This document shows, piece after piece, positions 9,538 to 61,336 of a DNA stretch of 64,000 nucleotides; the stretch's first letter is position 1; every line of letters starts with the position of its first letter. This DNA comes from an uncultured Bacteriovoracaceae bacterium (GTDB lineage Bacteria > Bdellovibrionota > UBA2428): contig CAZIFW010000006.1 in NCBI GenBank assembly GCA_964538275.1, positions 5,826 through 69,825 of the forward strand, read 5' to 3'. The translations under genes and the position numbers were made by a program. The notes below the pieces were generated by a model. The model worked only from the letters and a program-made list of their open reading frames with translations, searched no databases and was not told the DNA's origin.

Positions 9538-9540
9538 TCG

Positions 9541-38173: not shown

Positions 38174-38419
38174 TTTTTTTCCTTTTGTCTCTGATACCTA
38201 AGTTCATTTCTGAACGTCAGACTGTGCTTTACAGCAGTGCAGTTTGCTTGGGGCAAATATCCAGAGGTCTAATCTCTACGTCCCGATGATCCGCCGCTGG
38301 GTTTAACTCTTGGGGCCACACACTCGTGCGAGTGGGGGGGCGGGTCCAAGGGCTCGGGTCGTATTCTATAAATATCCCAGCGTGTGTTGTCTGCCAGTAT
38401 TGATAGCCGAGCCCACCGA

Positions 38420-38530
38420 GGGGGTCAAATGAAAGGTGCCTAGCACCTTTTCACACGTTGCACCCCCCCCAAGGCATTTGCGAAATGGTACCTAGTTACT
38501 TTTGGAAGGCACCCGCTACCTTTTGAAGCC
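38420..38530. repeat. Cluster of short palindromic motifs in the rpsB/uvrC divergent intergenic region. It includes a perfect 20-nt hairpin (38432-38451) and a 'ccgctacctttt' motif shared with the 51001-51104 element.
   Basis: aaaggtgcctagcacctttt (38432-38451) is self-complementary. 'aaaggtgcc' and 'ccgctaccttttgaa' recur in the repeat elements at 40291-40346 and 51001-51104. C8 and G7CGGG homopolymer-like tracts flank the region. Confidence 0.45.
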
Positions 38531-38568
38531 TCTTTTACCCAAGAGCTAAAAACCGCTATTCTAGCGAT

Positions 38569-40290
38569 ATGCAGAGGCCTTTATTTGAAGAATTCATAGC
38601 CGCTGCACCCAAAACCCCCGGCTGTTATGTGATGAAGGATGAGGGCGGGACCATCATTTATGTGGGTAAAGCCAAGAACATCCGCAATCGCGTGATGAGT
38701 TATTTTCGCGATAACCTGAGCAGCCCCAAAACTCAGGTTCTGGTTTCTAAGATCAAGGCCATGGAGTTTTTGCAAACCGACACCGAAGTAGAGGCTTTGC
38801 TCTTAGAAAACACTCTCATTAAAAAGCATCGCCCTCGCTATAATATTCGTCTCAAAGACGACAAAACTTACCCCTATATTTGGATCGATACGCGCCACGA
38901 TTTTCCGCGCGCTTATTTTGCCCGCAAGCCTCAGGTGAGTGCGGGGGGCTTGTATTTTGGTCCTTACCCAAGTCCTTTTGCCTTGAGGCAACTTTTACAA
39001 TTGGCATCTAAAGCATTTCTATTGCGTGATTGTCGCGATAGCGAATTTGCCAACCGTTCTCGACCTTGTTTGAGCTATCAAATTGGCCAGTGCACGGCAC
39101 CCTGTGTGCAGTACGTAGACAAAGAAGCCTATCAGCAACAGGTAAATGAGTTTTTGCGTTTTCTTAAGGGCGAAAACGAAATCCTGCGCGATTTGTGGCA
39201 AGAGCAAATGGTCAAATCATCTGAGGCTATGAATTATGAGGATGCGGCTCGCTATCGAGATAGGCTTAAGGCCTTAGAGGATTTGCAAAAAGACCAGCGC
39301 GCGGTGGACCTGAACGACATGAAAAGCCGCGATGTGTGGTGTTACTGGCCCTTTGATTTCTTCACGAATAAGACTGAAGAAAAACAAGATTTTGATTTAT
39401 TACTTTTGCAGTTTCGCGATGGAAAATGGTGGGGGCGCAAGCATTTTCCAATACTCTTAGAAGATACAGAGTTAGATCGAGAAGCTTTTATCAGTTTAAT
39501 TTCTCGTTATTATTTGAAAGCAGATATCCCTTCAGAAGTTGTTGTTCCTACTGACTTTGATACAAACGAAACAAAAGTTTTAAGTGAGCTTCTTCGTATT
39601 GAAAGTGAAGCCCGTCAACATTTGCCCTTTGAGTTTGAAAAAGTTCTAACTGTGCAAACAGGTGATAAGTTATGGAAGATTTGGGATTTGGCTCTTTCGA
39701 ACGCGCGCTCAATGGGTGAGGAGCAAGGAAAAATCAGAGAGCGTCGTCGCGACTCTGTTCAACAGTTGGCAAAACTATTAAAAATTCCAACTCGCTTAGA
39801 GCGCATAGAGTGTTTGGATATTTCAAATTTTCAAGGGGCCGAAAACGTGGCTGCATGTGTGGTTTTTATCAATGGAAAAAAAGCACTGGATGAGTATCGA
39901 AACTTCATCATTAAAAGTGTGCAAGGCCAAGATGACTTTGGAAGTTTGCGCGAAGTTGTAAGACGGCGTTATGGAAAACCCGATAGTCCGCGTCCGGATT
40001 TGTTGATAGTAGATGGGGGCCGAGCACAGCTGGAAAGCGTTCAACTTGCCATGAAAGAAATGGATGTAAATTTTCCTGTGGTGGGATTGGCAAAAGCTCG
40101 CACAGCACGAGATTTTACTTCCTCAGAAGTGGAAGCTAGCTCTGAGCGCTTTTTCTTGCCGGGACAAAAGAATCCCAAAATTATTAAAGAACAATCTGTG
40201 TTGCGCTTAGTGACTGAGATTCGCGACGAAGCCCATCGTTTTGCTATCAGCTTTCACCGCAAACGCCGCGACCAAATCAACGAAGAGTAA
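38569..40290 (+). CDS. uvrC: Excinuclease ABC subunit C.
   Basis: GIY-YIG N-terminus (GCYVMKDEGGTIIYVGKAKNIRNR), a UvrBC-interaction region, and a C-terminal endonuclease/HhH region. Confidence 0.9.
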   Translation: MQRPLFEEFIAAAPKTPGCYVMKDEGGTIIYVGKAKNIRNRVMSYFRDNLSSPKTQVLVSKIKAMEFLQTDTEVEALLLENTLIKKHRPRYNIRLKDDKTYPYIWIDTRHDFPRAYFARKPQVSAGGLYFGPYPSPFALRQLLQLASKAFLLRDCRDSEFANRSRPCLSYQIGQCTAPCVQYVDKEAYQQQVNEFLRFLKGENEILRDLWQEQMVKSSEAMNYEDAARYRDRLKALEDLQKDQRAVDLNDMKSRDVWCYWPFDFFTNKTEEKQDFDLLLLQFRDGKWWGRKHFPILLEDTELDREAFISLISRYYLKADIPSEVVVPTDFDTNETKVLSELLRIESEARQHLPFEFEKVLTVQTGDKLWKIWDLALSNARSMGEEQGKIRERRRDSVQQLAKLLKIPTRLERIECLDISNFQGAENVAACVVFINGKKALDEYRNFIIKSVQGQDDFGSLREVVRRRYGKPDSPRPDLLIVDGGRAQLESVQLAMKEMDVNFPVVGLAKARTARDFTSSEVEASSERFFLPGQKNPKIIKEQSVLRLVTEIRDEAHRFAISFHRKRRDQINEE

Positions 40291-40346
40291 TGTCGAAAAG
40301 GTGCCATAGGGGTGTCGAAAAGGTCTCTGACGCCTAAATGACATTA
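40291..40346. repeat. Copy of an intergenic repeat element ('tgtcgaaaaggtgccaNaggggtgtcgaaaaggtctctgacgcctaaatgaca'), placed directly between the convergent uvrC and 40344..40622 stop codons.
   Basis: A 44/45-nt identity with 51055-51098 is visible. The terminal 'ggtctctgacgcctaaatgaca' also occurs inverted at 51001-51022. Confidence 0.6.
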
Positions 40347-40622
40347 TTGGGGGTCGCGGTCGAATACGTTCGGATTTGGCGCAAACTGTTTGTTGTCATC
40401 TTTGTAGAAGGGATTGTCTTTGCTAACGCGAATTTTTCTGGGGACATTCGCAGAATTTTCTTCTTTGTAAGGTTCTTGATTTTGTTTTTCTTGGAGTGTT
40501 TTTAAATCTGAAGTTGCAACACCGAGTGCAGTGGCTCCGTATTGTTGAGAATTCAGGAGAGACGAAAAGAAAAGGGTAGAAAAAAGACAAAACGCGTAGC
40601 GCATGGCGGCATAATCTAACAC
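40344..40622 (-). CDS. Small hypothetical secreted protein, 92 aa.
   Basis: Signal peptide (MRYAFCLFSTLFFSSLLNSQQ). Pro/Asn/Lys-rich. Confidence 0.35.
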   Translation of the reverse strand: MLDYAAMRYAFCLFSTLFFSSLLNSQQYGATALGVATSDLKTLQEKQNQEPYKEENSANVPRKIRVSKDNPFYKDDNKQFAPNPNVFDRDPQ

Positions 40623-40838
40623 TTATTATTTCAGTTTGGAATATGTGTTGAGTTCAGGTTTCTTTGAACTCGGCTGACACATTTGCAAAGGTTTTTACAG
40701 TTTATTTCTCACAGCTTAGGGAACTTCTTTGCTAGAAACATACTCGGAGGAAATAGAGGGGTATGAAAATGTTAAAGCGCCTAGTCGTGCATTTGTTTTT
40801 AAGAGTTGTTGTTTAGTTTAAAAAACTTACGACACAAA

Positions 40839-41612
40839 TTAGTAATTGTAGCTAACCATACCGAGCACGGTAAAGTAATTGCCGTCTCGGCCAAGTTTAC
40901 CTACAAGAATGTCAGCATCTGGCCAAAAGAGTAAATGATAACGAACATCGAGTCCTAAAAAGACTTTGTTCTTGTAAACATCAAACTCAAAACCACCGCC
41001 CACACTGCAACCAAAAGCTGTGGTGCTTACAACACTACCGGTAGCAAACTTATCCGCTACGCTGGGATCTACTCCCGTTGTGGTGGCCGATCCTTTAACG
41101 CCTTCTGATCGAAACATCATCAATCCGTTGAAGGCAAGGTAGGGGTTCATCAATGAAATTCCGCGAGGAAGGTTGTCGCGATCAAAGGCGTAGCGAACAC
41201 CCAAGCTCACTGGAATCATCACAGTATCCATACTGATATCGATGTTTGCTGTGCTGGTGTTTTGTTCGTTGTAACTTGTTTTGTGAGTGTAGTAACCCAC
41301 TCCCAATTCACCGCCCCACATTTTATCGAAGTAAAATACAAAGCGCAGGCCGAGGTTAAATCCGGCTGAGTTGGCGGCTCCCAGGTCTCCTGTGAATAAA
41401 CCAGTACCCATTAAAAAATTAGTTTGAAAAAATCTTCCAAAGTAGCGGCTTACTTCTTCGTCGAGTTGTACGGGATCACTTTCGAAAGCGCTGTAATCAT
41501 CGTACATGTTGGAGTTAATGCCCACTTGGGCATTTGCGGCAAATGATGCCCCCAAACACATTGTCGCCACAAAAGTCTTTACACAACTGCTTACGTATCT
41601 CCCCAAAACCAT
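40839..41612 (-). CDS. Outer-membrane beta-barrel protein (porin-like).
   Basis: Signal peptide (…LGASFAANA|Q), an amphipathic beta-strand pattern, and a C-terminal …VSYNY terminus. Confidence 0.55.
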   Translation of the reverse strand: MVLGRYVSSCVKTFVATMCLGASFAANAQVGINSNMYDDYSAFESDPVQLDEEVSRYFGRFFQTNFLMGTGLFTGDLGAANSAGFNLGLRFVFYFDKMWGGELGVGYYTHKTSYNEQNTSTANIDISMDTVMIPVSLGVRYAFDRDNLPRGISLMNPYLAFNGLMMFRSEGVKGSATTTGVDPSVADKFATGSVVSTTAFGCSVGGGFEFDVYKNKVFLGLDVRYHLLFWPDADILVGKLGRDGNYFTVLGMVSYNY

Positions 41613-41694
41613 ACATTTAGTATAGCCGTCTTAACGTGGAGACCAAAATTGGGACGCAAATTCCCAAACTCACAGTGTAAAGGCCCAAATTGTC

Positions 41695-42417
41695 GTGATA
41701 GCGTCACTGTTTATGGACAAGGAACTGACACCTTTTCAATCTAACGTATTAGAAATTTTAGAAAATCGCCGTTTTTGGACGATATTGGCAGGAGCTGCCT
41801 TTATTGTACTTGCGGTGGGTTTTGGCCGTTATTACAGCCAACAATCAGCCAAAAAGGCGGAACGAGTAGCTTCTGACAAGCTTTTCGCAATCGAAAAGGT
41901 TGAAGTAGAGGGACTGTCCCCGAGTTCCAGCATTTTCTCTCAAGACTTTATGAAAAAACGCTTGGAATGGGATGATGCAAAAAAAGCCAAGATTAAAGGC
42001 GAGCTGGAATCACTTATTGCTGAATTTCCCAAGACAGCCTCTGCTCAGTCTGCACGCATACGATTGGCTGCAATGTCGTATCAAGATTCAAACTTTGAGC
42101 AAGCCACAAAATACTTTGAAGAAGTTATTTCAAAGGGGACAAAAGATTTAGCAGACATTCCTTATTGGAGTGCAAAATTAGGTTTAGCTTATTTGTTGGA
42201 AACACAAAAAAAATATGACGAAGCGATTACACATTACAAAGATGTGGCTTCTGATGTTAAAAACCCACTGGCAGCTGAAGCGATGTTGTCACAAGTGAGA
42301 TCTTTAAAAGCAAGCGGCAAGCTTACTGAGATTGCTCCCATCATTGAAAAAATTAAAACTGAATTCGCGGGCACTTATTATGAATCCGCTGCACGCGCTT
42401 ACGAAAGCGCTCGGTAG
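41695..42417 (+). CDS. YfgM-like membrane-anchored TPR protein (ancillary SecYEG translocon subunit family).
   Basis: A single N-terminal TM helix (FWTILAGAAFIVLAVGFGRYY), then a TPR-like helical domain. Its position immediately upstream of bamB mirrors the yfgM–bamB synteny. Confidence 0.55.
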   Translation: MIASLFMDKELTPFQSNVLEILENRRFWTILAGAAFIVLAVGFGRYYSQQSAKKAERVASDKLFAIEKVEVEGLSPSSSIFSQDFMKKRLEWDDAKKAKIKGELESLIAEFPKTASAQSARIRLAAMSYQDSNFEQATKYFEEVISKGTKDLADIPYWSAKLGLAYLLETQKKYDEAITHYKDVASDVKNPLAAEAMLSQVRSLKASGKLTEIAPIIEKIKTEFAGTYYESAARAYESAR

Positions 42418-42426
42418 GTTATACGC

Positions 42427-43569
42427 ATGAAGTTGTTCTTATATGCAACTGCGCTATTAGCTGTATCGTGCACAACACTTCCTAAGGGCGCGTTGGATAC
42501 TTCGCGCTTTACAGGCATTGGCATGGTTGAGATTGAGCGCGATCCAAAGTTTGAGCGAGGTCCAGCTTTGGGTTCTTTTGCTTATCCCATTAAATTCAGT
42601 GATACCGATTATTTTGTAGGAACCTTAGGTGGTTCTTTTGGTCGTTTTCACACTCCAAGTGGAAGTTTTAAATGGAAAAAAACTTTTCGTGTGGGTGTAG
42701 CTTCGCGTCCAGCGATTAGAGGAAACCGAGTTTATATCAGCGCAATGGACGGTTTTGTATATGCCTACGATTTACAAAATGGTCGTCAAATTTGGAAAAA
42801 GAAACTGAGTGCAGAATCTCTTGGTAACTTGGTGATGGGAGAAGATTATCTCTACGTAGCTAGTTCGGATAATATTCTTTGGGCACTGAATGTTCAGACG
42901 GGCGATGAGCAATGGACTTTACGTCGTCCTTCTCCAAATGCTTCTTACTTTTGGTCCTTGCGTGGTAACACTGCGGGCGTATTGAGTGCTAACAAACAAA
43001 TTTTGTACCTAGGTTTTTCAGACGGCGTTGTAGTTGCTCTTAGAGCAAACAGCGGAGAAGTTATTTGGGAGCGAAGTTTTACGCGTCCAGGTCGCTTTCA
43101 AGATGCAGATACAGAACCTGTTTTATCTCCCGATGGCTCTACGCTTTACATAGCACTTCCAGATCATACGGTGCAGGTGCTTAGAACATCGGATGGTTCT
43201 TCTACAGATAGTTATCCGGATGCCTCTGGTTTTGTTCCCTATGTGAACTTCAAAGAAGGCACCATGATTTACACCACGCCAAACGGAACTGTTCGTAAGT
43301 ATCAGCTTTCTACTAAGAAGTTGCTGTGGGAGCTCAGTCTTAAGAAAAGTGGCATTGGTGTTGAGTTCTTTGATCTTAATAATGGTGAACTGTTGATGAC
43401 CTCAACTCACTTTGGACTTCATTTGATTGATTCTAAAACAGGTAAAATGTTGGGCGAGCATTATTTGGGCGAAGGCACATTGGCGCGTCCTATATCGGAT
43501 GGGTCGCGTGTTTTTGTAATGACGGGTCGTGGTCGTTTAGCGTTCTTAAAGATTAACAAAAAGATTTAG
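42427..43569 (+). CDS. bamB: Outer-membrane protein assembly factor BamB (PQQ-like beta-propeller lipoprotein).
   Basis: Lipobox LAVSC|TT. Repeated 'G.VYa.d..tG..lW' beta-propeller blades (…GFVYAYDLQNGRQIWKK…, …ILWALNVQTGDEQW…, …GVVVALRANSGEVIWER…). Confidence 0.75.
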   Translation: MKLFLYATALLAVSCTTLPKGALDTSRFTGIGMVEIERDPKFERGPALGSFAYPIKFSDTDYFVGTLGGSFGRFHTPSGSFKWKKTFRVGVASRPAIRGNRVYISAMDGFVYAYDLQNGRQIWKKKLSAESLGNLVMGEDYLYVASSDNILWALNVQTGDEQWTLRRPSPNASYFWSLRGNTAGVLSANKQILYLGFSDGVVVALRANSGEVIWERSFTRPGRFQDADTEPVLSPDGSTLYIALPDHTVQVLRTSDGSSTDSYPDASGFVPYVNFKEGTMIYTTPNGTVRKYQLSTKKLLWELSLKKSGIGVEFFDLNNGELLMTSTHFGLHLIDSKTGKMLGEHYLGEGTLARPISDGSRVFVMTGRGRLAFLKINKKI

Positions 43570-43578
43570 GACTTTCTT

Positions 43579-44049
43579 ATGAATAAACTTTTTTCACTCG
43601 TTGCTTTAACTTTAGTTTTTGTTGCGCCCGTTCAGGCTGAGAGCGATTACGATTCTATTCGCAGTTGTTTAAATGCTTGGGGTACTCACCCATTCCCTAA
43701 AGACAAAAGCCGTGCGGATAAAGTACTCAGTCCAAGTGTGAAGGTTTTGGGAATTGGTGGCCGAGACATTGAAGATGCAAACGTCACTGAAAAAGCTTCT
43801 CTTGTTTTAATTAAACCGAGCGTGAATGTGTTGAGCAAATCTACTTTTAGACTTACAAACCCCAAAGGTTGGTACTGTCTCAAAGGTACGGTTGCTGTAC
43901 TTGGTAAAGCTGAATTCATACTTCATTGCAAAGCTAAGATGGCCACAAATAATGGAGATGTAGCAGTGCTCGGCAAAAACGAAAATCAAGAGGGCGGCGT
44001 AGCAGTTCTTGGGTCTATTCGCGTAAAAACAATCGGCGACTGTAACTAG
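43579..44049 (+). CDS. Hypothetical secreted protein, 156 aa, with internal VAVLGK repeats.
   Basis: Signal peptide (…FVAPVQA|ES). GTVAVLGKAEF, GDVAVLGKNEN and GGVAVLGSIRV repeats. Confidence 0.4.
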   Translation: MNKLFSLVALTLVFVAPVQAESDYDSIRSCLNAWGTHPFPKDKSRADKVLSPSVKVLGIGGRDIEDANVTEKASLVLIKPSVNVLSKSTFRLTNPKGWYCLKGTVAVLGKAEFILHCKAKMATNNGDVAVLGKNENQEGGVAVLGSIRVKTIGDCN

Positions 44050-44070
44050 CTTTTTTGTATAGAGCGTAGC

Positions 44071-44189
44071 GCCTTGGCGAGTGAGCAAAACTTTTTAGAT
44101 CACTAAAGGGGGCATGGCCCCCTCTCTTAAGTGCTTTGCACTTAATTCACTCCCTATTGATCTAAAAAGTTTTGCTCACACGCCAAGGC
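44071..44189. repeat. 119-nt element with 32-bp near-perfect terminal inverted repeats (31/32) enclosing two small hairpins. Candidate MITE-like element, structured RNA or terminator.
   Basis: Left arm gccttggcgagtgagcaaaactttttagatca (44071-44102). Right arm tgatctaaaaagttttgctcacacgccaaggc (44158-44189). Internal gggggcatggccccc and aagtgctttgcactt palindromes. Followed by cttttgcccttt. Confidence 0.6.
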
Positions 44190-44275
44190 TTTTGCCCTTT
44201 CCAAATTGCTTTGGATTTTTACTTTGGAGAAGAAAATTGCTTACTGTAGCGGATGATGGGTTTTTCCCTTAAACT

Positions 44276-45301
44276 ATGATCATGATTGAGAGTGGCACGG
44301 GATGGGCCGGGAAACTTCAGGATCGTCCTTCATTTATACTCTCTTGGGGTAAAAGCAAAGAAAACCCATCTCTCTTTTACGATCTAGCATCTCTGACAAA
44401 AGTTATAGTCACGGGTTCTCTACTTTTAGAGCTTTGTATGGAGCTCAAAAAAACTATCGAAGAATTCAAAGAACTCACACTCGATACTTTTTTGCCTCAA
44501 TCATCTGTATCGCTCTCTAAGCTCAAAGTGGGCGAAGTATGGGAGCATCGTGCCGGATTAAAATCACACTTTTTACTTGATCCCCTAAAGTCAAGAAATG
44601 CATTTTCCGGAACTCGCGCACAATTATGGACGTATGTTTTAGATCAAATTTCACAGCAAGGAATGAGTTCTAACAAAGACTGCGTATACTCTGATTTAGA
44701 CTTTTGGGTACTCGGTGCGCTTTTAGAAACACATTATAAAAAAGATCTTAAAGAACTTTGGCAGGATTACAAAAAAAAGTATTCATTGCCTTCAAATGAT
44801 CTCGTCTATGGTCCGATCATGGAAGATGTTGTCGCAACTGAGACTCGTCACCCTATAGGGATAGTGAACGACGACAATGCTTGTTTTATGCAAGGCATTG
44901 CGCCCCACGCAGGTTTGTTTGCAACAGTCGAAGCTGTTTGGGAATGGATGCTTTTGATGCAATTCCACTATGATAAAAACCCAGCTCTTCAGAGTTTTTT
45001 TGTGCCTCAAGGCGATAATCGTTTTTGGTGTGGATGGGATCGTCCAAGTGAAGAACTTAGCCAAGCGGGCGAGGGGGCTCCTCGCGAGGAAGTGCTGGGG
45101 CATCTTGGATATACGGGAACAGCGCTTTGGTGGGATCCGGTCACACGTTGGGGTGGAGTATTGTTAACCAATAGAGTTTATCCCTCTCATACAGAGGCGA
45201 GTAGAGAAGAAGTTAAAGCCCTTCGAATTAAGTTTTTTAGTTTGTTGTGGCATTCAAACAAAGACGAACTTTGGGCAGCCCTTCAGCAAGAGATAACTTA
45301 G
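44276..45301 (+). CDS. Beta-lactamase-family serine hydrolase (class C / esterase-like).
   Basis: S-x-x-K active-site motif LASLTKV near the N-terminus, a Y-x-N-like motif (VYSDLDF), and overall PBP/beta-lactamase-like length. Confidence 0.6.
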   Translation: MIMIESGTGWAGKLQDRPSFILSWGKSKENPSLFYDLASLTKVIVTGSLLLELCMELKKTIEEFKELTLDTFLPQSSVSLSKLKVGEVWEHRAGLKSHFLLDPLKSRNAFSGTRAQLWTYVLDQISQQGMSSNKDCVYSDLDFWVLGALLETHYKKDLKELWQDYKKKYSLPSNDLVYGPIMEDVVATETRHPIGIVNDDNACFMQGIAPHAGLFATVEAVWEWMLLMQFHYDKNPALQSFFVPQGDNRFWCGWDRPSEELSQAGEGAPREEVLGHLGYTGTALWWDPVTRWGGVLLTNRVYPSHTEASREEVKALRIKFFSLLWHSNKDELWAALQQEIT

Positions 45302-45691
45302 TTATTTTTTTCTTCTTAGTTTTATAGAACCATCAGGACGTTGATTTTTAGATTTGAAGCGCTCAGAAGTGATGCCATTTTTTTTGGGGTTTTTTAAATG
45401 ACCCCTTTCGTGGGCGCGCTGACGCCACCTCAAAAAAGATGAACTCTTGAGCTGCATGCGCATAAAAATCACAACATCATCGGGTTTGAGTCCAAATTGT
45501 TTTTCTATCAATTCAAAAGGAGTACGGTCTTCTAGAGCCATACTGATAATACGGTCGTAGTCTGATTCGGGAATGCGAGCGATACGATCTTTTCTGTTCA
45601 CATCATTCACATAAACAAAAATAGAGACATTCTTCGAATAGGATTTAACTCGCTTTAAATCCCCATTGAAGGAAAAAGAGAACACATGCAC
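45302..45691 (-). CDS. DUF2805 (TIGR03643-like) small conserved protein with a Lys/Arg-rich C-terminal tail.
   Basis: DYDRIISMALEDRTPFELIEKQFGLKPDDVVIFMRMQLKSSSFLRWRQRAHERG matches the DUF2805 core (…riiemAWeDRTPFeaIe.qFGl.e..Vi.lMR.el.pssFr.WR.Rv…). Confidence 0.55.
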   Translation of the reverse strand: MHVFSFSFNGDLKRVKSYSKNVSIFVYVNDVNRKDRIARIPESDYDRIISMALEDRTPFELIEKQFGLKPDDVVIFMRMQLKSSSFLRWRQRAHERGHLKNPKKNGITSERFKSKNQRPDGSIKLRRKK

Positions 45692-45701
45692 TCTGTGATC
45701 T

Positions 45702-46394
45702 ATGCAAGAAGCAACGAAGTGGGTTACTCGCCAGAGGTGGGAACATGTTCAATTTTTACACTTCACTGGGGCTGCCGAAGTGGTTCGGTCAGTGCTTCCG
45801 AAAGAGCTCGAGCTTGATTGTTGGCAAAATGAAGCTGTTCTCTCTGTTGTTCCGTTTCGAATGACTCGCGTGCGATTTCCTGGAGTTCCATCAATTCCAG
45901 TTTTATCTAATCTTTGGGAACTCAATTTACGAACGTATGTTAAGTATAAAAGTCAGAGAGGGGTTTATTTTTTTACACTTGAAAGCAGCAATCCTTTGGC
46001 GACATGGGTGGCGCGTACTTTTTTTTCACTTCCCTATGCAAATTCAAAACTCCAAGTGAATAAGGCTCATCAAGATAACTTTCACACAATTCATAGAAGA
46101 GGAAATCTGAGTTGTGAAATTGTATGCGACTTGAAGAGCGGCGTTGAGTTTATAAAAAATGACTTTTCGGATTGGGCGACCGAACGCTATTGTCTTTTTA
46201 ATGTGAAAAAAAATAAGGTTTATAGGGGAACAGTCTTTCATAATCCTTGGAAGTTAAACGCTTTAGAGGTGAAAAAGTTTGAAGGAAACTTTCTTTCATT
46301 AGTGCCAAATGCGGATAGTTTCAAACTGTATGCATCCAGCTATTGTCGTTTGATTGACGTAAGTTTTAAAGCCTTTGAAATCATGGGTACTTAA
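45702..46394 (+). CDS. DUF2071 (COG3361) family protein.
   Basis: WEHVQFLHFTGAAEVVRSVLPKELELD…AVLSVVPFRMTRVRFPGVP…ELNLRTYVKY…GVYFFTLESSNPLATWVARTFFSLPYANSKL follows the DUF2071 consensus as recalled from memory. Confidence 0.55.
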   Translation: MQEATKWVTRQRWEHVQFLHFTGAAEVVRSVLPKELELDCWQNEAVLSVVPFRMTRVRFPGVPSIPVLSNLWELNLRTYVKYKSQRGVYFFTLESSNPLATWVARTFFSLPYANSKLQVNKAHQDNFHTIHRRGNLSCEIVCDLKSGVEFIKNDFSDWATERYCLFNVKKNKVYRGTVFHNPWKLNALEVKKFEGNFLSLVPNADSFKLYASSYCRLIDVSFKAFEIMGT

Positions 46395-46474
46395 ACCTGA
46401 TTGAACTGCAAAATGGCGAGCTATTTTGGAGCTTTTTTGCTTTAGTCTTAACTTAAAATTGACGATAAGTAAGG

Positions 46475-48106
46475 GTGCTTGGCTTCTCCTTTTTTATCTT
46501 AGAAAAGAAAGTTTTTTTTCTTAGATACTTCATATTTATAGCGGGATCTTTCTTGTTTTCGCTTCAGACTAACGCTGTGATTTGCAGACATGCTTTGGGA
46601 GTAGAAGGATCCGAAAACGGCGGAGCTTCTAATCCTACAAGCAAAGCTACAACCTCTAGGCCCGATGATTTAAAAACAGCAGTGAATCCTTATGGTGATG
46701 GTTTCGTGCGAGAAGCCCATGAGACTGAGCGCGAAGGGCAGCTATACAATGTAAATGAAAATTTTAATTCCAAAGTTGATGAAAAAGGCAATCCTAGAAA
46801 AGACGGGCGCTACTTATTTGTAGTCGCGCGAGATATCGATGGAGTTCGTCGCATCATGGTTGTTCCACGCTTTGATTTTGATAGAGCCGATGGAAAATTT
46901 TTGAGCACACATCGCTCTATGTTTAGAAAATATCGCGACGTTTTTGGTCCCACTCCCTCTATTGAAGTTATGGGAGAAATTGAAATTAATGCGGGAACTG
47001 TGGTGTCTTACAATAATAAAGCGGGTACGGGTTATGATCCCAAAGAGGCCGAAGACCCTCATTTGTTTGAACAAAGAAAAGCTATTGCTGAGTCTATGGG
47101 AATTGATTTGTCTAAAGCTGATCGAGTTGTGAATTATACTCCCATAGCTATTGAGGCCGAAAAAAATAAAGAAAAAGCCCGAATCCCAGGGAGGCACATT
47201 GAAGAAGAAGAATTTGTTGTGAGAATGAAATTGCTCTACGAGCAGCCCATCTTACGCGAAATGATTCAGAAGCAAGATAATTTAGTTCAGCGAGCCTATG
47301 CGCTCTTTCCTCAAAATATAGAAAAAAATCCCAAGCGTATTTTTAATTTCAAAGAAGAGCCCCTTTTATCCTTAGGCATTCCACTCTTGGAGCAAGGGAA
47401 TTTAGAAATGACTACAAGTCTCTCCCAGGATCATGGAGCGGGAACAATGATGGCAAATATGCTAATTAACAATAACTCGGGAGCTTTACCATTTGCTAAG
47501 TACTTAGATAATTTTGAAAAACTTGTCCTTTATTTAGAGGCTAAAAAAGACGGTAAGACTTTAAGCGTACCCGATTGGACCAAAGATCAAAGTGATCTTC
47601 CTTCTCGATATTTAGCTCAGCATGCTCAAAGCGGCGAAAAAACTGTAAATGACACCAGACAAAAAATCTTAATGGCAGAAGGTCGACCGGATCCTTTGGA
47701 ACCAGAAAAGAATTTAAAAATCCTTAATTGGTCGCTTACTCCAGGTGAAAAGCATTACTTAACTTCTGATGAAAAAAGAAATGAGATTATAAATGCGCAA
47801 CTACTTTTAGAAGAATTGCGTGAACGCTTTGGTATTACTAAAGATCGCGGTGGACCTTTTGATTACAAAAAGTTTTCAGAAACTATGCGTTTTGATGAAG
47901 ATAATGGATTTACAGAAGACCACATAGCGAACAAAATGATTTACGATTTACTCATGGAAAGTGAGCGCTCCGGGGGGCAACCCCTTAAACTGTACGATGA
48001 AATGTCTAAATCAGCTGAAGCTGCTCCAGAAGACGACATGTATATGAATCCTCTTCCCTCTACTGTGGTAGGTGCTTATCTGAGGATCTTAGGTATTCGG
48101 CCTTAG
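46475..48106 (+). CDS. Hypothetical secreted protein, 543 aa.
   Basis: Signal-like N-terminus (…KKVFFLRYFIFIAGSFLFSLQTNA|V). No recognisable catalytic motifs. AT-rich gene. Confidence 0.5.
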   Translation: MLGFSFFILEKKVFFLRYFIFIAGSFLFSLQTNAVICRHALGVEGSENGGASNPTSKATTSRPDDLKTAVNPYGDGFVREAHETEREGQLYNVNENFNSKVDEKGNPRKDGRYLFVVARDIDGVRRIMVVPRFDFDRADGKFLSTHRSMFRKYRDVFGPTPSIEVMGEIEINAGTVVSYNNKAGTGYDPKEAEDPHLFEQRKAIAESMGIDLSKADRVVNYTPIAIEAEKNKEKARIPGRHIEEEEFVVRMKLLYEQPILREMIQKQDNLVQRAYALFPQNIEKNPKRIFNFKEEPLLSLGIPLLEQGNLEMTTSLSQDHGAGTMMANMLINNNSGALPFAKYLDNFEKLVLYLEAKKDGKTLSVPDWTKDQSDLPSRYLAQHAQSGEKTVNDTRQKILMAEGRPDPLEPEKNLKILNWSLTPGEKHYLTSDEKRNEIINAQLLLEELRERFGITKDRGGPFDYKKFSETMRFDEDNGFTEDHIANKMIYDLLMESERSGGQPLKLYDEMSKSAEAAPEDDMYMNPLPSTVVGAYLRILGIRP

Positions 48107-48205
48107 TCTGGCATCTTAACAAAAGCCTCCAAGCTTCATTCAGTAAAGAAAATGAGTCGAAAAAACGTCGCTTTAGGATAAAGTTTTTCCTACATATCTG
48201 GCACA

Positions 48206-49738
48206 ATGAAAGTAGAGATAAAAGCCATGGAAAGCGCTAAAACAACACAACAAACGATAAATCAGCATTGGGTTCACTTCGTTGCAATTGGGGGCACGGG
48301 AATGGGCGCACTCGCAAGTTTATTTAAATCTCTGGGGGCCAAAGTGACTGGAAGTGATGGCCCAATCTATCCTCCCATGAGTTTATTTTTAGAAGCTCAA
48401 AAAATCCCACTCGCGCAAAGCTACGGTGAAGAGAATTTACAAGGATCAAGGTGGGGGTTTTCAGAGGCACATCCGAGTATTGTCATAATTGGAAATGCGA
48501 TTTCAAAAACCAATTTAGAAGCTCAAGCTGTAGAAAAGCTTGCTGCTCAAAGTAAATTACGCCGAATGAGCTTTCCTGAAGCCATTGGTGAATTCATGAT
48601 TCAAAAACGCACAAGTCTTGTGGTTGCGGGCACTCACGGAAAAACAACAACAACTTCTTTGCTAGCGTGGGCATGCGAAGTTTTAGGAAATGACCCAGGC
48701 TTTTTTATTGGTGGAATACCTAAAAACTTTGAAAGTGGCTCTCGAATGGGTACGGGAGTTTTTGCTAGCGAAGGTGATGAATACGATACCGCTTATTGGG
48801 ATAAGGGGTCTAAATTTTTACACTACAGACCAACATGGGTTTTAGGAACGGGCATTGAATTTGATCATGCGGATATTTATACATCTGTGGAGCAAATTGA
48901 AGAAAGTTTTTTAAAACTGGTGCCACTCACGGCAGAAGGCTGGCTTTTGATTGATCGTGTATCGGCACCTAAAGTTTCTAGCGTTGAGAAAATTGAAAAT
49001 GCCCTCAAAAAAATTGGCAAAAAATGTTTTCGCTACGGCGAAGATCCGGACTCCCCCTTCTCGTTGATGGGTTGGGAGCGTTGTCCGCTTCCATGGAATG
49101 AGCGTTCTTTTGGATTAAAGTTTCAAGTCAGTATTCATGGAGAAAAACACACTTTTGTAAGCCCCATGGTGGGCCGTCATAACTTATTAAATGCTTTAGG
49201 TGTAATGGGTGTGTTGCATTCCGCGGGTGTTTTAAAAAAGATTTCTGATTTTCAAGAAGTTTTACAAACATTCAAAGGCGTTACGCGTAGACAAGATATC
49301 TTACTTGAAAGTGAAAATTTTATCTTGATGGATGATTTTGCTCATCATCCAACAGCTATTAAAGAAACAATACAAGCAGTCAAGGAACGCTTTCCTCAGT
49401 ATTCTCTTGCTGCTTTTTTTGAGCCGCGTTCTGCAACTTCAGCTCGCAATACAATGTATGCAGATTTTGTAAAATCTTTTTCTGCAGCCGATGCAGTGTT
49501 TATTCAAGAAGCTACAAAAGTAAATGTTCCTGAGGCCGAACGTTTAAAAGTTCACGATCTTGTAAGAGAAGTTATTGGACGTGGTAATACAGAGTTTGCA
49601 AGCAGTAAAAAAACGATTGAAGAACTCGCTGCTGAATTTATAAATTGGAAAAGTAAAAAAGAAAAAGTTCTAGCTTTGGTTATGTCGAATGGAGCTTTTT
49701 CGGGCTTAAATAAAAAATTACTCGAGTTGGTCAAATAG
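48206..49738 (+). CDS. mpl: UDP-N-acetylmuramate:L-alanyl-gamma-D-glutamyl-meso-diaminopimelate ligase (murein peptide ligase Mpl).
   Basis: HFVAIGGTGMGALA…VTGSD, GTHGKTTTTSLLA and DEYDTAYWDKGSKFLHYRP. The C-terminal VMSNGAFSGLNKKLLELV closely parallels E. coli Mpl (…DEYDCAFFDKRSKFVHYCP…, …MSNGGFGGIHQKLL…). It is isolated from the dcw cluster, which also argues for Mpl rather than MurC. Confidence 0.8.
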   Translation: MKVEIKAMESAKTTQQTINQHWVHFVAIGGTGMGALASLFKSLGAKVTGSDGPIYPPMSLFLEAQKIPLAQSYGEENLQGSRWGFSEAHPSIVIIGNAISKTNLEAQAVEKLAAQSKLRRMSFPEAIGEFMIQKRTSLVVAGTHGKTTTTSLLAWACEVLGNDPGFFIGGIPKNFESGSRMGTGVFASEGDEYDTAYWDKGSKFLHYRPTWVLGTGIEFDHADIYTSVEQIEESFLKLVPLTAEGWLLIDRVSAPKVSSVEKIENALKKIGKKCFRYGEDPDSPFSLMGWERCPLPWNERSFGLKFQVSIHGEKHTFVSPMVGRHNLLNALGVMGVLHSAGVLKKISDFQEVLQTFKGVTRRQDILLESENFILMDDFAHHPTAIKETIQAVKERFPQYSLAAFFEPRSATSARNTMYADFVKSFSAADAVFIQEATKVNVPEAERLKVHDLVREVIGRGNTEFASSKKTIEELAAEFINWKSKKEKVLALVMSNGAFSGLNKKLLELVK

Positions 49739-49746
49739 GGGGCTAA

Positions 49747-50580
49747 TTGAAAAAATTTCGAGCGTCTGAACTTTCTGGACAAGGTACGCTTGAATATATT
49801 TTATTAACTGCTCTTGTTGTTGGCATTGTAATGACAGCTTTCAACGGACCCTTGCGTCGCTTTCTTGCAACCTATCAATCGCGCCAAACTGAATACACAA
49901 ATGTTATGACCCAAAGAAACATGGGTATACCTATGGGATGGTTTGGTGGAAATTATGCCAACCCTGGCGGTGGACCGGGAGCTACTGGAGGCGCAACTGC
50001 TGGTGCTGATCCTGGAGCTGACCCAGCTGATACTCCACCCCCCACGGGTGCAGGAGAGGTTACTCCTCCTGCAGTAGCAGGCACAAATGGCCAAGCTGGA
50101 GATGGTGCAAATCCACCTGAAGGACCAACAGGATATGCAGGTCCTGGTGGCGCAGGAGCAGGCCCGAATAACTCACTTTTAAGTCCGTCAGACACCCGAA
50201 CAGCTGCAAATACACGCGGAGGCAGAGGGGGGCGAACGACTGCGGGTGAAGGAGATGAAGAAGGTACACAAGAGGGTGGCTCTACTGCAAGAACAGGCGG
50301 CTTGCCTGCAAACAGAGCGGGCTCTGGTTCTATAGAAGATGAAGATGAGCAGGCACCTCCAAATGAAACAGAAGAAGAAAAACAAGCACGCGTTCGCCGA
50401 GCAGAAGAGGGCGAAACTTTAAAGCAAGCAGAGGGCTTGTATGGGCCAACTACGCGACGTGTTCGCGAGGGCTCCTGTGGGGATTTGGATTTAAAGGTTA
50501 TCTTGCAAATTGCATTTGTAATTGGTCTTTTCTTTTTGTTGGCAAGTATGCTTTTTCAAAAACGTGGGCGTGGCGATTAA
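49747..50580 (+). CDS. Flp-pilin-like N-terminus fused to a ~200-aa Gly/Pro/Ala/Thr-rich disordered region and a C-terminal TM helix. TTG start in the ORF track.
   Basis: N-terminal …ELSGQG|TLEYILLTALVVGIVMTAF resembles the Flp/Tad prepilin G/xxxxEY motif. The core GGGPGATGGATAGADPGADPADTPPPTGAGE… is low complexity. The C-terminal segment VILQIAFVIGLFFLLASMLF is hydrophobic. It starts 8 nt after the mpl stop. Confidence 0.5.
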   Translation: MKKFRASELSGQGTLEYILLTALVVGIVMTAFNGPLRRFLATYQSRQTEYTNVMTQRNMGIPMGWFGGNYANPGGGPGATGGATAGADPGADPADTPPPTGAGEVTPPAVAGTNGQAGDGANPPEGPTGYAGPGGAGAGPNNSLLSPSDTRTAANTRGGRGGRTTAGEGDEEGTQEGGSTARTGGLPANRAGSGSIEDEDEQAPPNETEEEKQARVRRAEEGETLKQAEGLYGPTTRRVREGSCGDLDLKVILQIAFVIGLFFLLASMLFQKRGRGD

Positions 50581-50634
50581 CTGTCGTTACTATAAGCATG
50601 AAACATTCTAAAATTTAGCTCAGAGGAGTATAAC

Positions 50635-50994
50635 GTGAAAAAAATATTAGCATTGTTATTTGTTTTATCTGGGACTTCACTTGCAATTGCAGAAGAGGGT
50701 GGACCTAAAGGAAAGAATTTTGAAGAAGCCAAGGCTCACGCTTTAAAGATGCTTGATGCAAGAACAAAGGCGCTTCAGGAAGCAAAGACTTGTATAAGTG
50801 CGGCTAAATCACATGACGATTTAAAAAAATGTCATGAAACTATGAAAGAACATCGTAAAGAATTTAAAGAGTCTCGCCAAGAGTTTCGAGAAGAGCGCAA
50901 AGAAAAGCGTGAAGAGTGGAAAAACAAACGCAAGGAATGGAAAGAAAGTCGTGGAAAAGACGCCCCTCCTCCTCCACCTGAAGGCGAAGAATAA
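50635..50994 (+). CDS. Small secreted charged-helix protein (KEKREE / REE repeats), periplasmic Spy/CpxP-like in composition.
   Basis: Signal peptide (MKKILALLFVLSGTSLAIA|EE). Two Cys, then …KEHRKEFKESRQEFREERKEKREEWKNKRKEWKESRGKDAPPPPPEGEE. Confidence 0.5.
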   Translation: MKKILALLFVLSGTSLAIAEEGGPKGKNFEEAKAHALKMLDARTKALQEAKTCISAAKSHDDLKKCHETMKEHRKEFKESRQEFREERKEKREEWKNKRKEWKESRGKDAPPPPPEGEE

Positions 50995-51000
50995 TATAAA

Positions 51001-51104
51001 TGTCATTTAGGCGTCAGAGACCTTTTTGACCACCCTCCGCTACCTTTTTAACAATGTCGAAAAGGTGCCAGAGGGGTGTCGAAAAGGTCTCTGACGCCTT
51101 TTTT
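51001..51104. terminator. Long imperfect palindrome (22-bp stem with one G·U, ~45-nt loop) followed by a T-tract. Probable intrinsic terminator between convergent genes, and a member of the same repeat family as 40291-40346.
   Basis: Left arm aggcgtcagagacctttttgac (51009-51030) pairs with right arm gtcgaaaaggtctctgacgcct (51077-51098). Followed by tttttgctttt. The loop contains ccgctacctttttaa and tgtcgaaaaggtgcca motifs. Confidence 0.6.
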
Positions 51105-51108
51105 GCTT

Positions 51109-51873
51109 TTAAGCTAAATGAATTTTCTTTGCGCTAATATCGAGCGCCCAAAAACAAATATCTTCAGGGCTTTTAGAGGTTTTTTCATTCTTCTCAAAAT
51201 TAAATAAGAAAGAGTTAAAGTCATCTTTGAGTTCTTCTGAGAGAGGATTGAGATCAATTTGTTGTAATAGCTTTTGATTGCTTTCTTTATTAAGAAAAAA
51301 CAAACGGCTACCAGGAGCAATTTGCATAGATTTTCTTTTTTCAGCTTCAATCACCTCAGGGGGTGTCCACTGTCGACGTTCAAAATTACGAGTAAAAAGC
51401 AAAGGAGCAACCCCGTGAGTGGCTTCTTCCCATTTCAAAGTAGAAATATGTAGGTTTGCTATAAAAATGCGAGCCTTTGGATCTTCGGCAGGCGAAAACT
51501 CAGAAAGTATATTTTCAAGTGCTAGAGCGGGGGTGCTCTCTGCCTTATCAAAAAAAGTTCTCCCTTGCAGAAGTAAATAGGTTTGAAAGAGTGATGTGCT
51601 CAAACCATAAGAGTGAACGCTGAAGTAAAAAAGCCAAAGATTGGTTTTTTTACTGTTAAGGAAAAAGTCAAAACCCTCTGCACGGTTTTGTTCGCCGGGT
51701 ATGTAGCGGCTTAAGAACTCAATGCCTTGAACTTGAGGAAATCTATTTTGTGTTACGAGTCCCTGAATTTGTTTGGCAATTTTTTCAGTGATACTAAGCT
51801 CTTTTTGTAAGCTTAAAAGTTTGCTCTCTAAAATCTTAAGGCGTTGTTCTACTTCGTCGGAATCAAAACTCAT
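51109..51873 (-). CDS. Degenerate SpoIIE/PP2C-like phosphatase-fold protein (possible pseudo-phosphatase) with an N-terminal coiled coil.
   Basis: GFDFFLNSKKTNLWLFYFSVHSYGLSTSLFQ aligns with PP2C/SpoIIE 'GDyfD…l.igDVSGHGv.Aal'. ATHGVAPLLFTR aligns with AGHppPLl.r. IAPGSRLFFLNKE aligns with l.pGD.lllyTDG. EDICFWALDI aligns with DDiTllvl. The metal-binding Asp of DVSGHG is replaced (SVHSYG). Overlaps the rsmB stop by 4 nt. Confidence 0.4.
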   Translation of the reverse strand: MSFDSDEVEQRLKILESKLLSLQKELSITEKIAKQIQGLVTQNRFPQVQGIEFLSRYIPGEQNRAEGFDFFLNSKKTNLWLFYFSVHSYGLSTSLFQTYLLLQGRTFFDKAESTPALALENILSEFSPAEDPKARIFIANLHISTLKWEEATHGVAPLLFTRNFERRQWTPPEVIEAEKRKSMQIAPGSRLFFLNKESNQKLLQQIDLNPLSEELKDDFNSFLFNFEKNEKTSKSPEDICFWALDISAKKIHLA

Positions 51874-59394: not shown

Positions 59395-60132
59395 GTGAAA
59401 CAATTTAAATTTTTAACATTAGGTTTAGTATTGAGCGGAGCATTGGTGACTTCTCAGGTGCATGCACTTGGAAAAAACACCACCAATACTGGATCGAGTT
59501 CTCAGGTAAGCAGCAATATGCAAAACTTCTTGCTGAGCTTGGGACTTTTCTACGCTAAGACAAATCCGCAAGTGGGTCCTATTTTAACTTCACTTGGAAT
59601 TAACACACCCGCTGATCTTAATAATTTTCTTAAAGGCGATAAAAACGGCTCAAATATTCAAGATATTATTACAAATGCAGCTATACAGTATGCGTTTAGC
59701 AATCCACAATATGCAGGTCTTTTTGATCAAATGGGAGTTACGGACTTTGCAAGTTTAAAGGCTCTGTTAACTTCTGGAGGCGGTGGCGCTAATCAGCAGC
59801 TGTTGCTGAATCTTGCTTTTAATTACATGCAAGGAAATTCTAATTATCAGTCTTGGCTTTCGCAGTTAGGGGTGAACGATGCGAGTGACTTGCAGGGACT
59901 TTTGTCCGGAACAGGTGATCAAACAGATTTGATGGCTGTTGTTTTGAATTTTGCAATGATTTACGCTCAGGCCAATCCTCAGTACGCACCTTATATTATG
60001 TTGATCAACATATTACTAAATAATCAGTCTTCTGGAATTGTAGACATAGCAAATCCATTCTTAGGTTCATTTGAGGGCTTAAGCAATGCAGAGATTAAAC
60101 GTGTTCAAGCTGCTAAAAAGTTAAAACTGTAA
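59395..60132 (+). CDS. Secreted protein built from about four ~40-aa 'NPQY…LGV.D..DL..LL' repeats.
   Basis: Signal peptide (…VHA|LG). Repeats …AKTNPQVGPILTSLGINTPADLNNFL…, …FSNPQYAGLFDQMGVTDFASLKALL…, …GNSNYQSWLSQLGVNDASDLQGLL…, …AQANPQYAPYIM…. Confidence 0.5.
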   Translation: MKQFKFLTLGLVLSGALVTSQVHALGKNTTNTGSSSQVSSNMQNFLLSLGLFYAKTNPQVGPILTSLGINTPADLNNFLKGDKNGSNIQDIITNAAIQYAFSNPQYAGLFDQMGVTDFASLKALLTSGGGGANQQLLLNLAFNYMQGNSNYQSWLSQLGVNDASDLQGLLSGTGDQTDLMAVVLNFAMIYAQANPQYAPYIMLINILLNNQSSGIVDIANPFLGSFEGLSNAEIKRVQAAKKLKL

Positions 60133-60220
60133 ATCATTTAGAAAATGACTCGCAATGAATCACATCTTCAATAGAAAACAGTCTATTGAACAGAAGTGGT
60201 GGGCTCTAAAAAAGAGCTCG

Positions 60221-61273
60221 CTACTTCTGCAGATTTATTTGCATCTGGTAGTGAGCGGGTAACAACATCGGTACTAAGCCTTGAAAGGGATGAAGCTGAT
60301 CTAAGATGCGCTCCATAGGATTTGCATCTGTAGTGAGCTGACCTAAAATCCCGCCAATATTTCTTTTGGGTCGAGGTAGTCGCACAACTTTAAGATCACC
60401 GAGTTTTTTGTCGTCTTGAAGCCATTTGATGGCATCTTTAGGACCACCGTTTTTATCTACAAGTCCCAATTTTAAGGCCTGTTCACCCGTCATGATGCGA
60501 CCATCTGCTACTTCACGAAGTTTTTCGAGCGGGATTTTTTCAGAGCGAGTTTTAGCAATGTCCATAATGAATTGCTCATGCACTTCTTTAAGCAAATTTT
60601 CTAAGTAGCTGCGTTCTTCGGGAGCTAATTCGCGAAATGGAGATCCAACATCTTTCATTTTTCCTGATTTAATCGTGACAGGTTTTAATTTTGCCCAAGT
60701 TGCTAGACCTTCCATATTGAAAAATTGAAAAATTACTCCAATGGAGCCAGTTGTGGTTCCAGGAAGTGCATATATATCATCACAGGCAGCGGCCAAGTAG
60801 TAACCACCACTTGCGGCAACATCGCCCATACTGCAAACAATCGGAATAGTTTTCTTAAGCTCTAGTACGCGCATAAATAAGTCTTGAGTGGGGGCCACCG
60901 AGCCTCCTGGAGAGTTGATATAAACCAAAAGACCTTTAACCTTTTTCTCTTTTACACCTTCTTCAATTTCATCAAGAGCATCAAAAATATCTTCACGAGA
61001 TCCCATGATGACACCTTCGATATTCAGTTGAGCTATAACTTCGTCTGAAGACTTTAAGGAGCCTGTTCGAATAATGCGAGGATCAAAACTTTCAAAAAAA
61101 TTAAAGGTTCTATCTAAGCTAAAATATGTTGTGAGAGAACAAGATCCCACTACAAGAAGCGTGATTAAGCCAGTAAAGATCCAAGGAAGAACACGAGGTT
61201 GCTCAGGTGAGGAATTGTACATTCTGTAAAAATAACCCTTAAAAGCACCTTTCTCAAATACATTGCCTCTCAT
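60221..61273 (-). CDS. sppA: Signal peptide peptidase SppA (S49, 36K type).
   Basis: N-terminal TM helix and the catalytic Ser region MGDVAASGGYYLAAACD. Confidence 0.8.
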   Translation of the reverse strand: MRGNVFEKGAFKGYFYRMYNSSPEQPRVLPWIFTGLITLLVVGSCSLTTYFSLDRTFNFFESFDPRIIRTGSLKSSDEVIAQLNIEGVIMGSREDIFDALDEIEEGVKEKKVKGLLVYINSPGGSVAPTQDLFMRVLELKKTIPIVCSMGDVAASGGYYLAAACDDIYALPGTTTGSIGVIFQFFNMEGLATWAKLKPVTIKSGKMKDVGSPFRELAPEERSYLENLLKEVHEQFIMDIAKTRSEKIPLEKLREVADGRIMTGEQALKLGLVDKNGGPKDAIKWLQDDKKLGDLKVVRLPRPKRNIGGILGQLTTDANPMERILDQLHPFQGLVPMLLPAHYQMQINLQK

Positions 61274-61336
61274 TCTTATGGCTCAGCAAAAAAAGGACTT
61301 TGACGCCCTTGTTTAGAGTCGTTAATCTAGCTGCTT

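Follow-up and report, generated by a model that had tools for sequence, protein, structure and literature searches.

REPs replicate as hairpin-forming doublets, of which singlets are the remnants (PMC3116915). REPs at 3' ends act as terminators and stabilizers (bioRxiv 10.64898/2026.03.23.713779). A REP/REPIN family has tens to hundreds of copies per genome and a cognate RAYT (Y1 transposase) that is usually flanked by repeats. A second group of comparable elements is that of the MITEs, of which the Correia/NEMIS elements of Neisseria are small, non-coding and bounded by long terminal inverted repeats. MITEs of this type can supply terminators and RNase III substrates. The third comparable system is the ordinary bidirectional terminator, with a stem of 5 to 14 bp and a loop of 3 to 8 nt. 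A full-text literature search returned no paper that describes REPs in Bdellovibrionota.

Here, we describe a repeat found at two loci, A and B, in 64,000 nt of DNA (the window) from an uncultured Bacteriovoracaceae bacterium of the Bdellovibrionota (GenBank assembly GCA_964538275.1, contig CAZIFW010000006.1, positions 5,826 to 69,825; genome G+C about 41%). We favor, with a probability of roughly 0.55, the reading that this is a low-copy, lineage-restricted REPIN/MITE-like repeat of an uncultured Bdellovibrionota genus, in which the doublet is an intrinsic terminator and the singlets are decayed halves. The element adds a new family to a well-known type of repeat. Its membership of the RAYT-associated REP class is not established, because a single unit is no palindrome, about 73 kb of the genome yielded two loci, and the window ORFs that were scanned or annotated include no RAYT.

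Results

A head-to-head doublet between two convergent genes

Locus B is a 91-nt imperfect palindrome at 51009-51099. It is a head-to-head doublet whose two 45-nt arms (51009-51053 and 51055-51099) are 82% complementary in an inverted-repeat search and are separated by a 1-nt spacer, the center base 51054. The base of the stem consists of 22 contiguous base pairs (51009-51030 with 51078-51099) that include a single G·U (T51027 with G51081), as an earlier, sequence-only reading of this DNA had proposed. That reading had also suggested folding the element, which yields a strong hairpin with z scores of about -11: the RNA fold reaches -63.3 kcal/mol on the plus strand (z = -10.9) and -62.6 kcal/mol on the minus strand (z = -11.9), against about -26 kcal/mol for shuffles, none of which (0 of 200) was equally stable. 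The corresponding DNA fold has -35.9 kcal/mol (z = -9.9).

The position of this palindrome between two convergent genes and the T-run that follows it, both pointed out before, are confirmed here. The gene on the left (50635-50994, plus strand) ends with a stop codon at 50992-50994, 15 nt from the palindrome, and encodes a Lys/Glu-rich protein of 119 aa with a hydrophobic N-terminus that suggests a signal peptide. On the right, 10 nt away, is the stop codon (51109-51111) of a 254-aa gene (51109-51873, minus strand), which matches no Pfam family and closes an operon that also encodes an RsmB-like methyltransferase. T6 at 51099-51104 lies directly 3' of the stem and would be the U-tract for the plus-strand transcript of the 119-aa gene. 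The plus strand thus has the anatomy of an intrinsic terminator, namely a G+C-rich hairpin followed within 1 to 2 nt by a U-tract (UUUUUUGCUUUU). On the minus strand of the window, the sequence past the hairpin is UAAAUGAC, with no U-tract. Locus B, with its 45-bp imperfect stem, was not reported by a consensus terminator scan, and a strict scan of the intergenic DNA of the window found only one other perfect-stem terminator.

In this very compact genome, 8 of the 12 convergent gene pairs of the window are spaced by -22 to +24 nt, and the four wider junctions include those that hold locus A (53 nt) and locus B (114 nt). Another convergent junction, between the genes at 59395-60132 and 60221-61273, contains two strong hairpins at 60150-60228 (fold z = -7.2). 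One of them has a 16-bp stem (CAGAAGTGGTGGGCTC...GAGCTCGCTACTTCTG). The region has no U-tract, and both hairpins are unrelated to the element at loci A and B.

Four short-read Logan contigs of the same organism, from three samples, end 17 to 25 nt within the stem of locus B (L005 at 6042, L006 at 4854, L008 at 10799 and L009 at 1611, corresponding to window 51026-51075). These ends approach from both sides and mark an assembly breakpoint at B. Loci A and B have no 30-mer in common, so the breaks suggest strain variation, extra copies or coverage loss, among which they cannot discriminate. A weak promoter-like match (TTGACC, 18 nt, AACAAT; 9 of 12 bases) lies inside the left arm at 51026-51055 and is directed through the center of the palindrome, and the mirror arm has TCGACA, about 18 nt and GACATT; promoter-like matches in this region are fewer than expected by chance. 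Rfam has no family for the element, either in the whole window at gathering scores or in 38000-51400 at E ≤ 1.

The repeat unit and its single copy after uvrC

The unit that makes up the doublet is 45 to 55 nt long and consists of two 22-nt tandem sub-repeats, each formed by TGTCGAAAAGGT plus 10 nt. An alignment of seven units places an invariant AAAAGGTCTCTGACGCCT at the unit end, followed by TAAATGACAT or a T-run. The right unit of B (51055-51099, plus strand) carries TGTCGAAAAGGT at 51055-51066 and 51077-51088, 22 nt apart. The left unit (50999-51053, minus strand) has both sub-repeats on the other strand, at 51020-51031 and 51042-51053, and the tail ATGTCATTTA at 51000-51009. An HMM built from the seven units recovers the right unit at E = 3e-16 and the left unit, which is 84% complementary to 40291-40345, at E = 1.7e-14. 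The 21-mer GTCGAAAAGGTCTCTGACGCC has three occurrences in the window at no more than one mismatch, against 0.00 expected.

Locus A (plus strand, 40290-40344) consists of one 55-nt unit, ATGTC...GACAT, with the two copies of TGTCGAAAAGGT starting at 40291 and 40313 (40291-40302 and 40313-40324). It fills the 53-nt gap between the stop codon of uvrC (40288-40290), which it abuts, and that of a small conserved ORF (40344-40346). The uvrC gene (38569-40290, plus strand) has the Pfam UvrC domains. The convergent small ORF (40344-40622, minus strand) encodes a hydrophobic N-terminus and is conserved in three lineages; translation probably begins at the Met of residue 7 (about 40604). We find that the right half of B indeed recurs after uvrC, as the sequence-only reading had recognized, with 46 of 47 bases identical between the right arm and 40289-40335. 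Of the two copies of ggtctctgacgcctaaatgaca that it had listed, the inverted one stands at 51001-51022, and the direct one lies at 40322-40343 instead of 40325-40346, a shift of 3 nt.

Single units are not palindromic themselves. Locus A has no significant hairpin (z = -1.3 against shuffles) and no T-run and is half an element, and the copy on contig L004, described below, also folds no better than shuffles (z = -0.6). Hairpin and U-tract, the anatomy of a terminator, are absent from both. The idea that the element is reused as a terminator is supported by the anatomy of the doublet at B, whereas the uvrC copy is no terminator-like hairpin.

All loci in the window and in the closest relative (contig L010) lie between stop codons, and the L004 copy begins 5 nt past the stop codon of cutA, so that the element is extragenic throughout. 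The ATGTC...GACAT unit at locus A is flanked by TA on both sides in the window and by AAG and TAC in L010, and locus B has no such flanks. No consistent target-site duplication was seen across loci, the TA flanks being found only at locus A of the window.

Presence, absence and opposite halves in related genomes

Comparison contigs were fetched via UvrC and the 254-aa protein and represent four genomes or lineages. These are the JGI contig L010 (UvrC 97% identical); L011 and L004, two contigs of the congeneric MAG ABC2.20 (UvrC 85%); L012 (UvrC 87%); and L017 to L019 (254-aa protein 83% identical), of which L018 shares one sample with L012. Contig L013 (UvrC 78%) differs in gene context and carries no copy.

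At site B, L010 has the same palindrome, with TAAAAAA (A6) on its left and TTTTT (T5) on its right. Hairpin and U-tract are thereby present on both strands, and the locus looks like a bidirectional intrinsic terminator. ABC2.20 has no element at this junction, which instead holds an ordinary bidirectional terminator, AAAAAAGGCAGCTGAG-ataatac-CTCAGCTGCCTTTTTT, with a 7-nt loop, a folding energy of -31 kcal/mol and z = -6. The B region of L017 to L019 contains no copy, and its gene order differs.

At site A, L010 has a 33-nt element in the same place and in the opposite orientation. Its reverse complement is identical at every base (33/33) to the window unit without one of the 22-nt sub-repeats, and the two genomes thus keep opposite halves of the element at one site. 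There is no element after uvrC in ABC2.20 (L011), and in L012 the stop codons of uvrC and the small ORF are 2 nt apart. Orthologous sites are therefore seen empty in relatives, with flanks too diverged for exact boundaries.

ABC2.20 does carry one arm elsewhere. On its other contig, L004, a lone arm lies directly after the stop codon of cutA and matches the left arm of L010 at 41 of 46 bases. This copy at an unrelated locus, together with empty orthologous sites in two related lineages, argues that the repeat is more than a local duplication, the outcome that would have spoken against the family proposed by the sequence-only reading. The L004 arm (7204-7256) has the cutA stop on one side and, on the other, a gene for a class I methyltransferase that is encoded on the same strand. 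Read from the GTG at 7265, the longest frame possible for this gene shares sequence with the arm, which may therefore supply the gene's 5' end or leader.

The window differs from its relatives in other intergenic and genic segments. The DUF2805 and DUF2071 genes at 45302-46394 are also on Logan contigs of the same organism and are missing at that position in L010 and L011; ABC2.20 is also without a 543-aa gene. An insertion of about 190 nt relative to L010 (15455-15489) and L011 lies at 44056-44270 of the window, where it separates a 156-aa gene from a gene of the beta-lactamase family. It contains an unrelated 119-nt palindrome (44071-44189) with 35-nt arms that are 94% complementary and two inner hairpins (-88 kcal/mol, z = -7.6). 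CTTTT(T)G occurs on both sides, and Rfam returned only generic hairpin models below threshold. This insertion may represent another MITE-like element, or else a gene for a small RNA.

Unit sequences exceed the neutral background

The neutral background was taken from uvrC, the Mur ligase gene and the 254-aa gene, at their four-fold degenerate sites. At these sites, identity is 39 to 48% between the window and L010 and 29 to 42% between the window and ABC2.20, which is near saturation. Unit identity overall is 89 to 100%: the B arms of the window and L010 are identical at 42 of 45 bases, site A at 33 of 33, and the ABC2.20 arm from the unrelated cutA/methyltransferase junction shares the 41 of 46 bases given above with the left arm of L010. 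Such values, against 29 to 48% at neutral sites, indicate that the primary sequence of the unit is under selection and maintained, or has recently spread between lineages. The same follows from the terminator of ABC2.20 at B, which differs in sequence: an ordinary terminator needs its shape alone.

The three differences per arm between the B arms of the window and L010 amount to a reciprocal swap of GGGGTGTCG and GGGTGGTCA. This exchange of arm variants points to recombination between arms.

Copy number

Run over 178 kb of sequence in all, the HMM finds only two loci in the window, A and B, at E < 1e-13, and it yields no further copy in the remainder. The two loci are also all that occurs in about 73 kb of the source genome, a span that includes 8.7 kb to the left of the window, taken from Logan contigs of the same organism and without a copy. 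The sequence-only reading had counted at least three loci. Its third, at 38420-38530, is not a copy, as it combines one short fragment (38513-38527; HMM E = 25) with an unrelated conserved hairpin. That hairpin (38432-38452, AAAGGTGC-CTA-GCACCTTT) contains the aaaggtgcc sub-motif that had been assigned to the family. We reject the assignment, since the hairpin falls in an rpsB-upstream region conserved in four relatives and 93.5% identical in one of them.

This rpsB-upstream region (38174-38470, minus strand) is itself non-coding. Its 93.5% identity is to L010, against about 45% at neutral sites, and conservation extends to L011, L012 and L013. Of the 34 pairs in the RNAalifold prediction, 5 show compensatory changes. 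Rfam gave no match, not even with a cut-off of E ≤ 1, and the region is a candidate for an rpsB leader or another structured RNA in this clade. In the adjoining stretch between rpsB and uvrC, L010 carries a gene with a YkuD domain (8903-9979), in place of which the window has an unrelated 78-nt segment (38470-38547) that contains the 12-mer CCGCTACCTTTT.

Exact copies of CCGCTACCTTTT lie at 722, 38513 and 51037, all of them intergenic, and their recurrence may mark degenerate fragments of the element. Three such candidates, all on the plus strand, can be named. The first, CTCCGCTACCTTTTTACCA at 719-737, matches the inner left arm of B at 18 of 19 bases; 0 of 300 shuffles score as high, and the HMM gives E = 1.6 (711-738). 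The second is CCGCTACCTTTTGAA at 38513-38527, within the 78-nt segment that stands in place of the YkuD gene. The third, AAAAAGGACTTTGACGCCCTTGTT at 61290-61312, matches the outer right arm plus T-run at 19 of 23 bases, with a local alignment above that of all shuffles and an HMM E of 1.2 (61291-61307). We count these fragments as weak evidence because they were picked after a search of the whole window. The window also contains five tandem 33-nt repeats, which probably encode an Arg/Lys/Glu-rich repeat, at 21073-21225 in the 500-nt gap between 19978-20859 and 21360-22124.

A 21-mer scan of 185,579 species genomes, among which the source genome is not included, gave four matches. One is a true relative, ABC2.20 (GCA_041391385.1), with one intact core. 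The other three are chance matches within coding sequence (V-K-K-V-S-D-A) in unrelated phyla. A metagenome scan with the same 21-mer returned nothing, not even L010, which carries it. The intact core was found in none of the other 185,578 species genomes as a copy of the element, nor in viral contigs or the plasmid and phage collections, and the same collections yielded no further core match that could represent a parent insertion sequence with the ends of the element. No transposase or RAYT domain was found among the window ORFs that were scanned or have Pfam annotation. One ORF (13832-14662) matches ADP-ribosyltransferase exoenzyme families (PF03496, 6.8e-11; PF01129, 2e-6) and is toxin-like.

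Discussion

A doublet as probable terminator and singlets as putative decayed halves

Under our preferred reading, the 91-nt hairpin made by the two head-to-head units at locus B would terminate both convergent genes. The G+C-rich stem base and U-tract, together with the A-tract in L010, make it most likely that this hairpin ends transcription, and comparison with L010 and ABC2.20 indicates that the doublet has the position and the flanking tracts expected for a terminator. Protection of the 3' ends of the convergent transcripts may be a further effect of the long stem. Locus A and the cutA copy of ABC2.20 would be decayed halves of doublets, in agreement with the published view of REP singlets as doublet remnants (PMC3116915). 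The simplest account of site A is that an ancestor had a doublet there and that the left arm was later lost in one lineage and the right arm in the other. Arm deletion probably took place between copies of the short direct repeat ATGTC or GACAT, both found at the ends and center of the doublet. Units that are conserved well beyond neutral sites and change position from genome to genome also suggest sequence-specific maintenance or spread, which could be transposition by an enzyme not found here, or gene conversion or exchange between copies. The proposal of a dispersed REP/BIME- or MITE-like family stands as far as a repeated palindromic element at gene 3' ends is concerned; about 73 kb of this genome yielded two loci, and no transposase was found among the window ORFs scanned or annotated. 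Against our reading are this low copy number, the missing transposase, the lack of a consistent target-site duplication, the non-palindromic unit, the overlong stem and the absence of a U-tract on the minus strand.

Copying in place and other readings

The similarity between loci could have arisen without mobility. A long terminator hairpin would have originated in place at the junction of the 119-aa and 254-aa genes, and pieces of it would have been copied by rare ectopic gene conversion or duplication, so that the similarity reflects recent copying. The very low copy number, the distance of just 10.7 kb between A and B and the lack of a transposase among the window ORFs all fit this account. 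So does the outer stem GGCGTCAGAG, which resembles the stem of the ABC2.20 terminator at the same site, GGCAGCTGAG, at 7 of 10 bases, with A6 and T6 flanks common to both. However, ABC2.20 lacks the element at A and B and yet has a 41/46 arm on another contig, despite near-saturated neutral sites. Local copying alone is insufficient for this pattern, which needs inter-lineage transfer or strong sequence-specific selection, and we regard this account as unlikely.

We hold it equally unlikely that the repeat represents a replicating palindromic element of Bdellovibrionota of a type not yet described. Such an element would have 22-nt tandem sub-repeats that bind a protein in place of REP hairpins, would be kept at low copy by a non-RAYT enzyme and would provide bidirectional terminators for an extremely compact genome. 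Its arms would recombine, a feature suggested by the reciprocal swap of arm variants between two genomes.

The regularity of the sub-repeats may point to function at the level of DNA. Four 12-bp sites (TGTCGAAAAGGT) spaced 22 bp apart, two per orientation, could be bound by a dimeric or tetrameric protein such as a regulator, nucleoid protein or recombinase, with the hairpin as a by-product of symmetry. The spacing is exactly 22 bp on both B arms and at locus A, the primary sequence is kept far above the neutral level, and stem mismatch positions are kept between genomes rather than repaired. Yet the sites are gained and lost among close relatives, halves persist alone, the element is always at gene 3' ends and is replaced by an ordinary terminator at the same junction, and no candidate binding protein is linked to it. 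We consider a binding array improbable.

Less probable still is that the element acts chiefly on RNA, with the stem of a read-through transcript being cut by RNase III or blocking 3' exonucleases and thereby setting the levels of the flanking mRNAs. The 22-bp uninterrupted stem inside a 45-bp imperfect stem would suit this role, as would two precedents: the Correia/NEMIS hairpins of Neisseria are RNase III substrates, and REPs stabilize upstream mRNA. Against it, the U-tract at the stem base and, in L010, the flanking A-tract and T-tract are the specific signature of intrinsic termination. A role in RNA processing or stability is compatible with our preferred reading and does not exclude it.

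We reject a transposon bounded by A (plus strand) and the left unit of B (minus strand), which form 55-nt inverted repeats 10.7 kb apart, because the intervening housekeeping genes are syntenic in element-free relatives, no transposase was found among the window ORFs scanned or annotated and A is reversed in L010, and likewise an invertible switch at A, whose 23-nt core is too small and whose two orientations are accounted for by a decayed doublet. To our knowledge, the element has no defining motif or linked gene of integron attC sites, dif/Xer, parS or CRISPR repeats.

If our preferred reading is true, relatives of predatory bacteria with very compact genomes also have hairpin repeats whose sequence is kept between species and which can take the role of ordinary terminators. 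Opposite halves at one site in two genomes would be a clean natural example of the origin of singlets from a doublet. Current views of REPs and MITEs would be left unchanged. The use of the element lies mainly in annotation, for terminators and assembly breaks, and in the lead it offers to an enzyme or protein that recognizes TGTCGAAAAGGT.

Comparison with known systems

Like ordinary bidirectional terminators, the element at B has a G+C-rich stem base and A-tract and T-tract flanks and starts 10 to 15 nt past both stop codons, and the same junction holds such a terminator in ABC2.20. Unlike them, it has a stem of about 45 bp with internal loops, its sequence is repeated elsewhere and conserved between species, and in the window a proper U-tract is found on the plus strand only.

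The element appears to differ from MITEs in that no consistent target-site duplication was seen, no parent insertion sequence was found in the collections searched and the copy number is low. Like the Correia/NEMIS elements, it is small and non-coding, with long terminal inverted repeats (45-nt arms, 82% complementary), and it adjoins genes and is present or absent among relatives.

Unlike a REP, its unit is not palindromic and is built from two 22-nt tandem sub-repeats, with a 1-nt spacer between units. Unlike REP/REPIN families, its copy number appears very low, with two loci in about 73 kb, and the window ORFs that were scanned or annotated include no RAYT. The likenesses are that the element is extragenic and at gene ends, that two inverted conserved units fold into a hairpin of about 100 nt at locus B in both the window and L010, that single units resemble decayed remnants, and that conservation across species goes beyond the neutral level. 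As with REPs, the element may act as a terminator or stabilizer at 3' ends.
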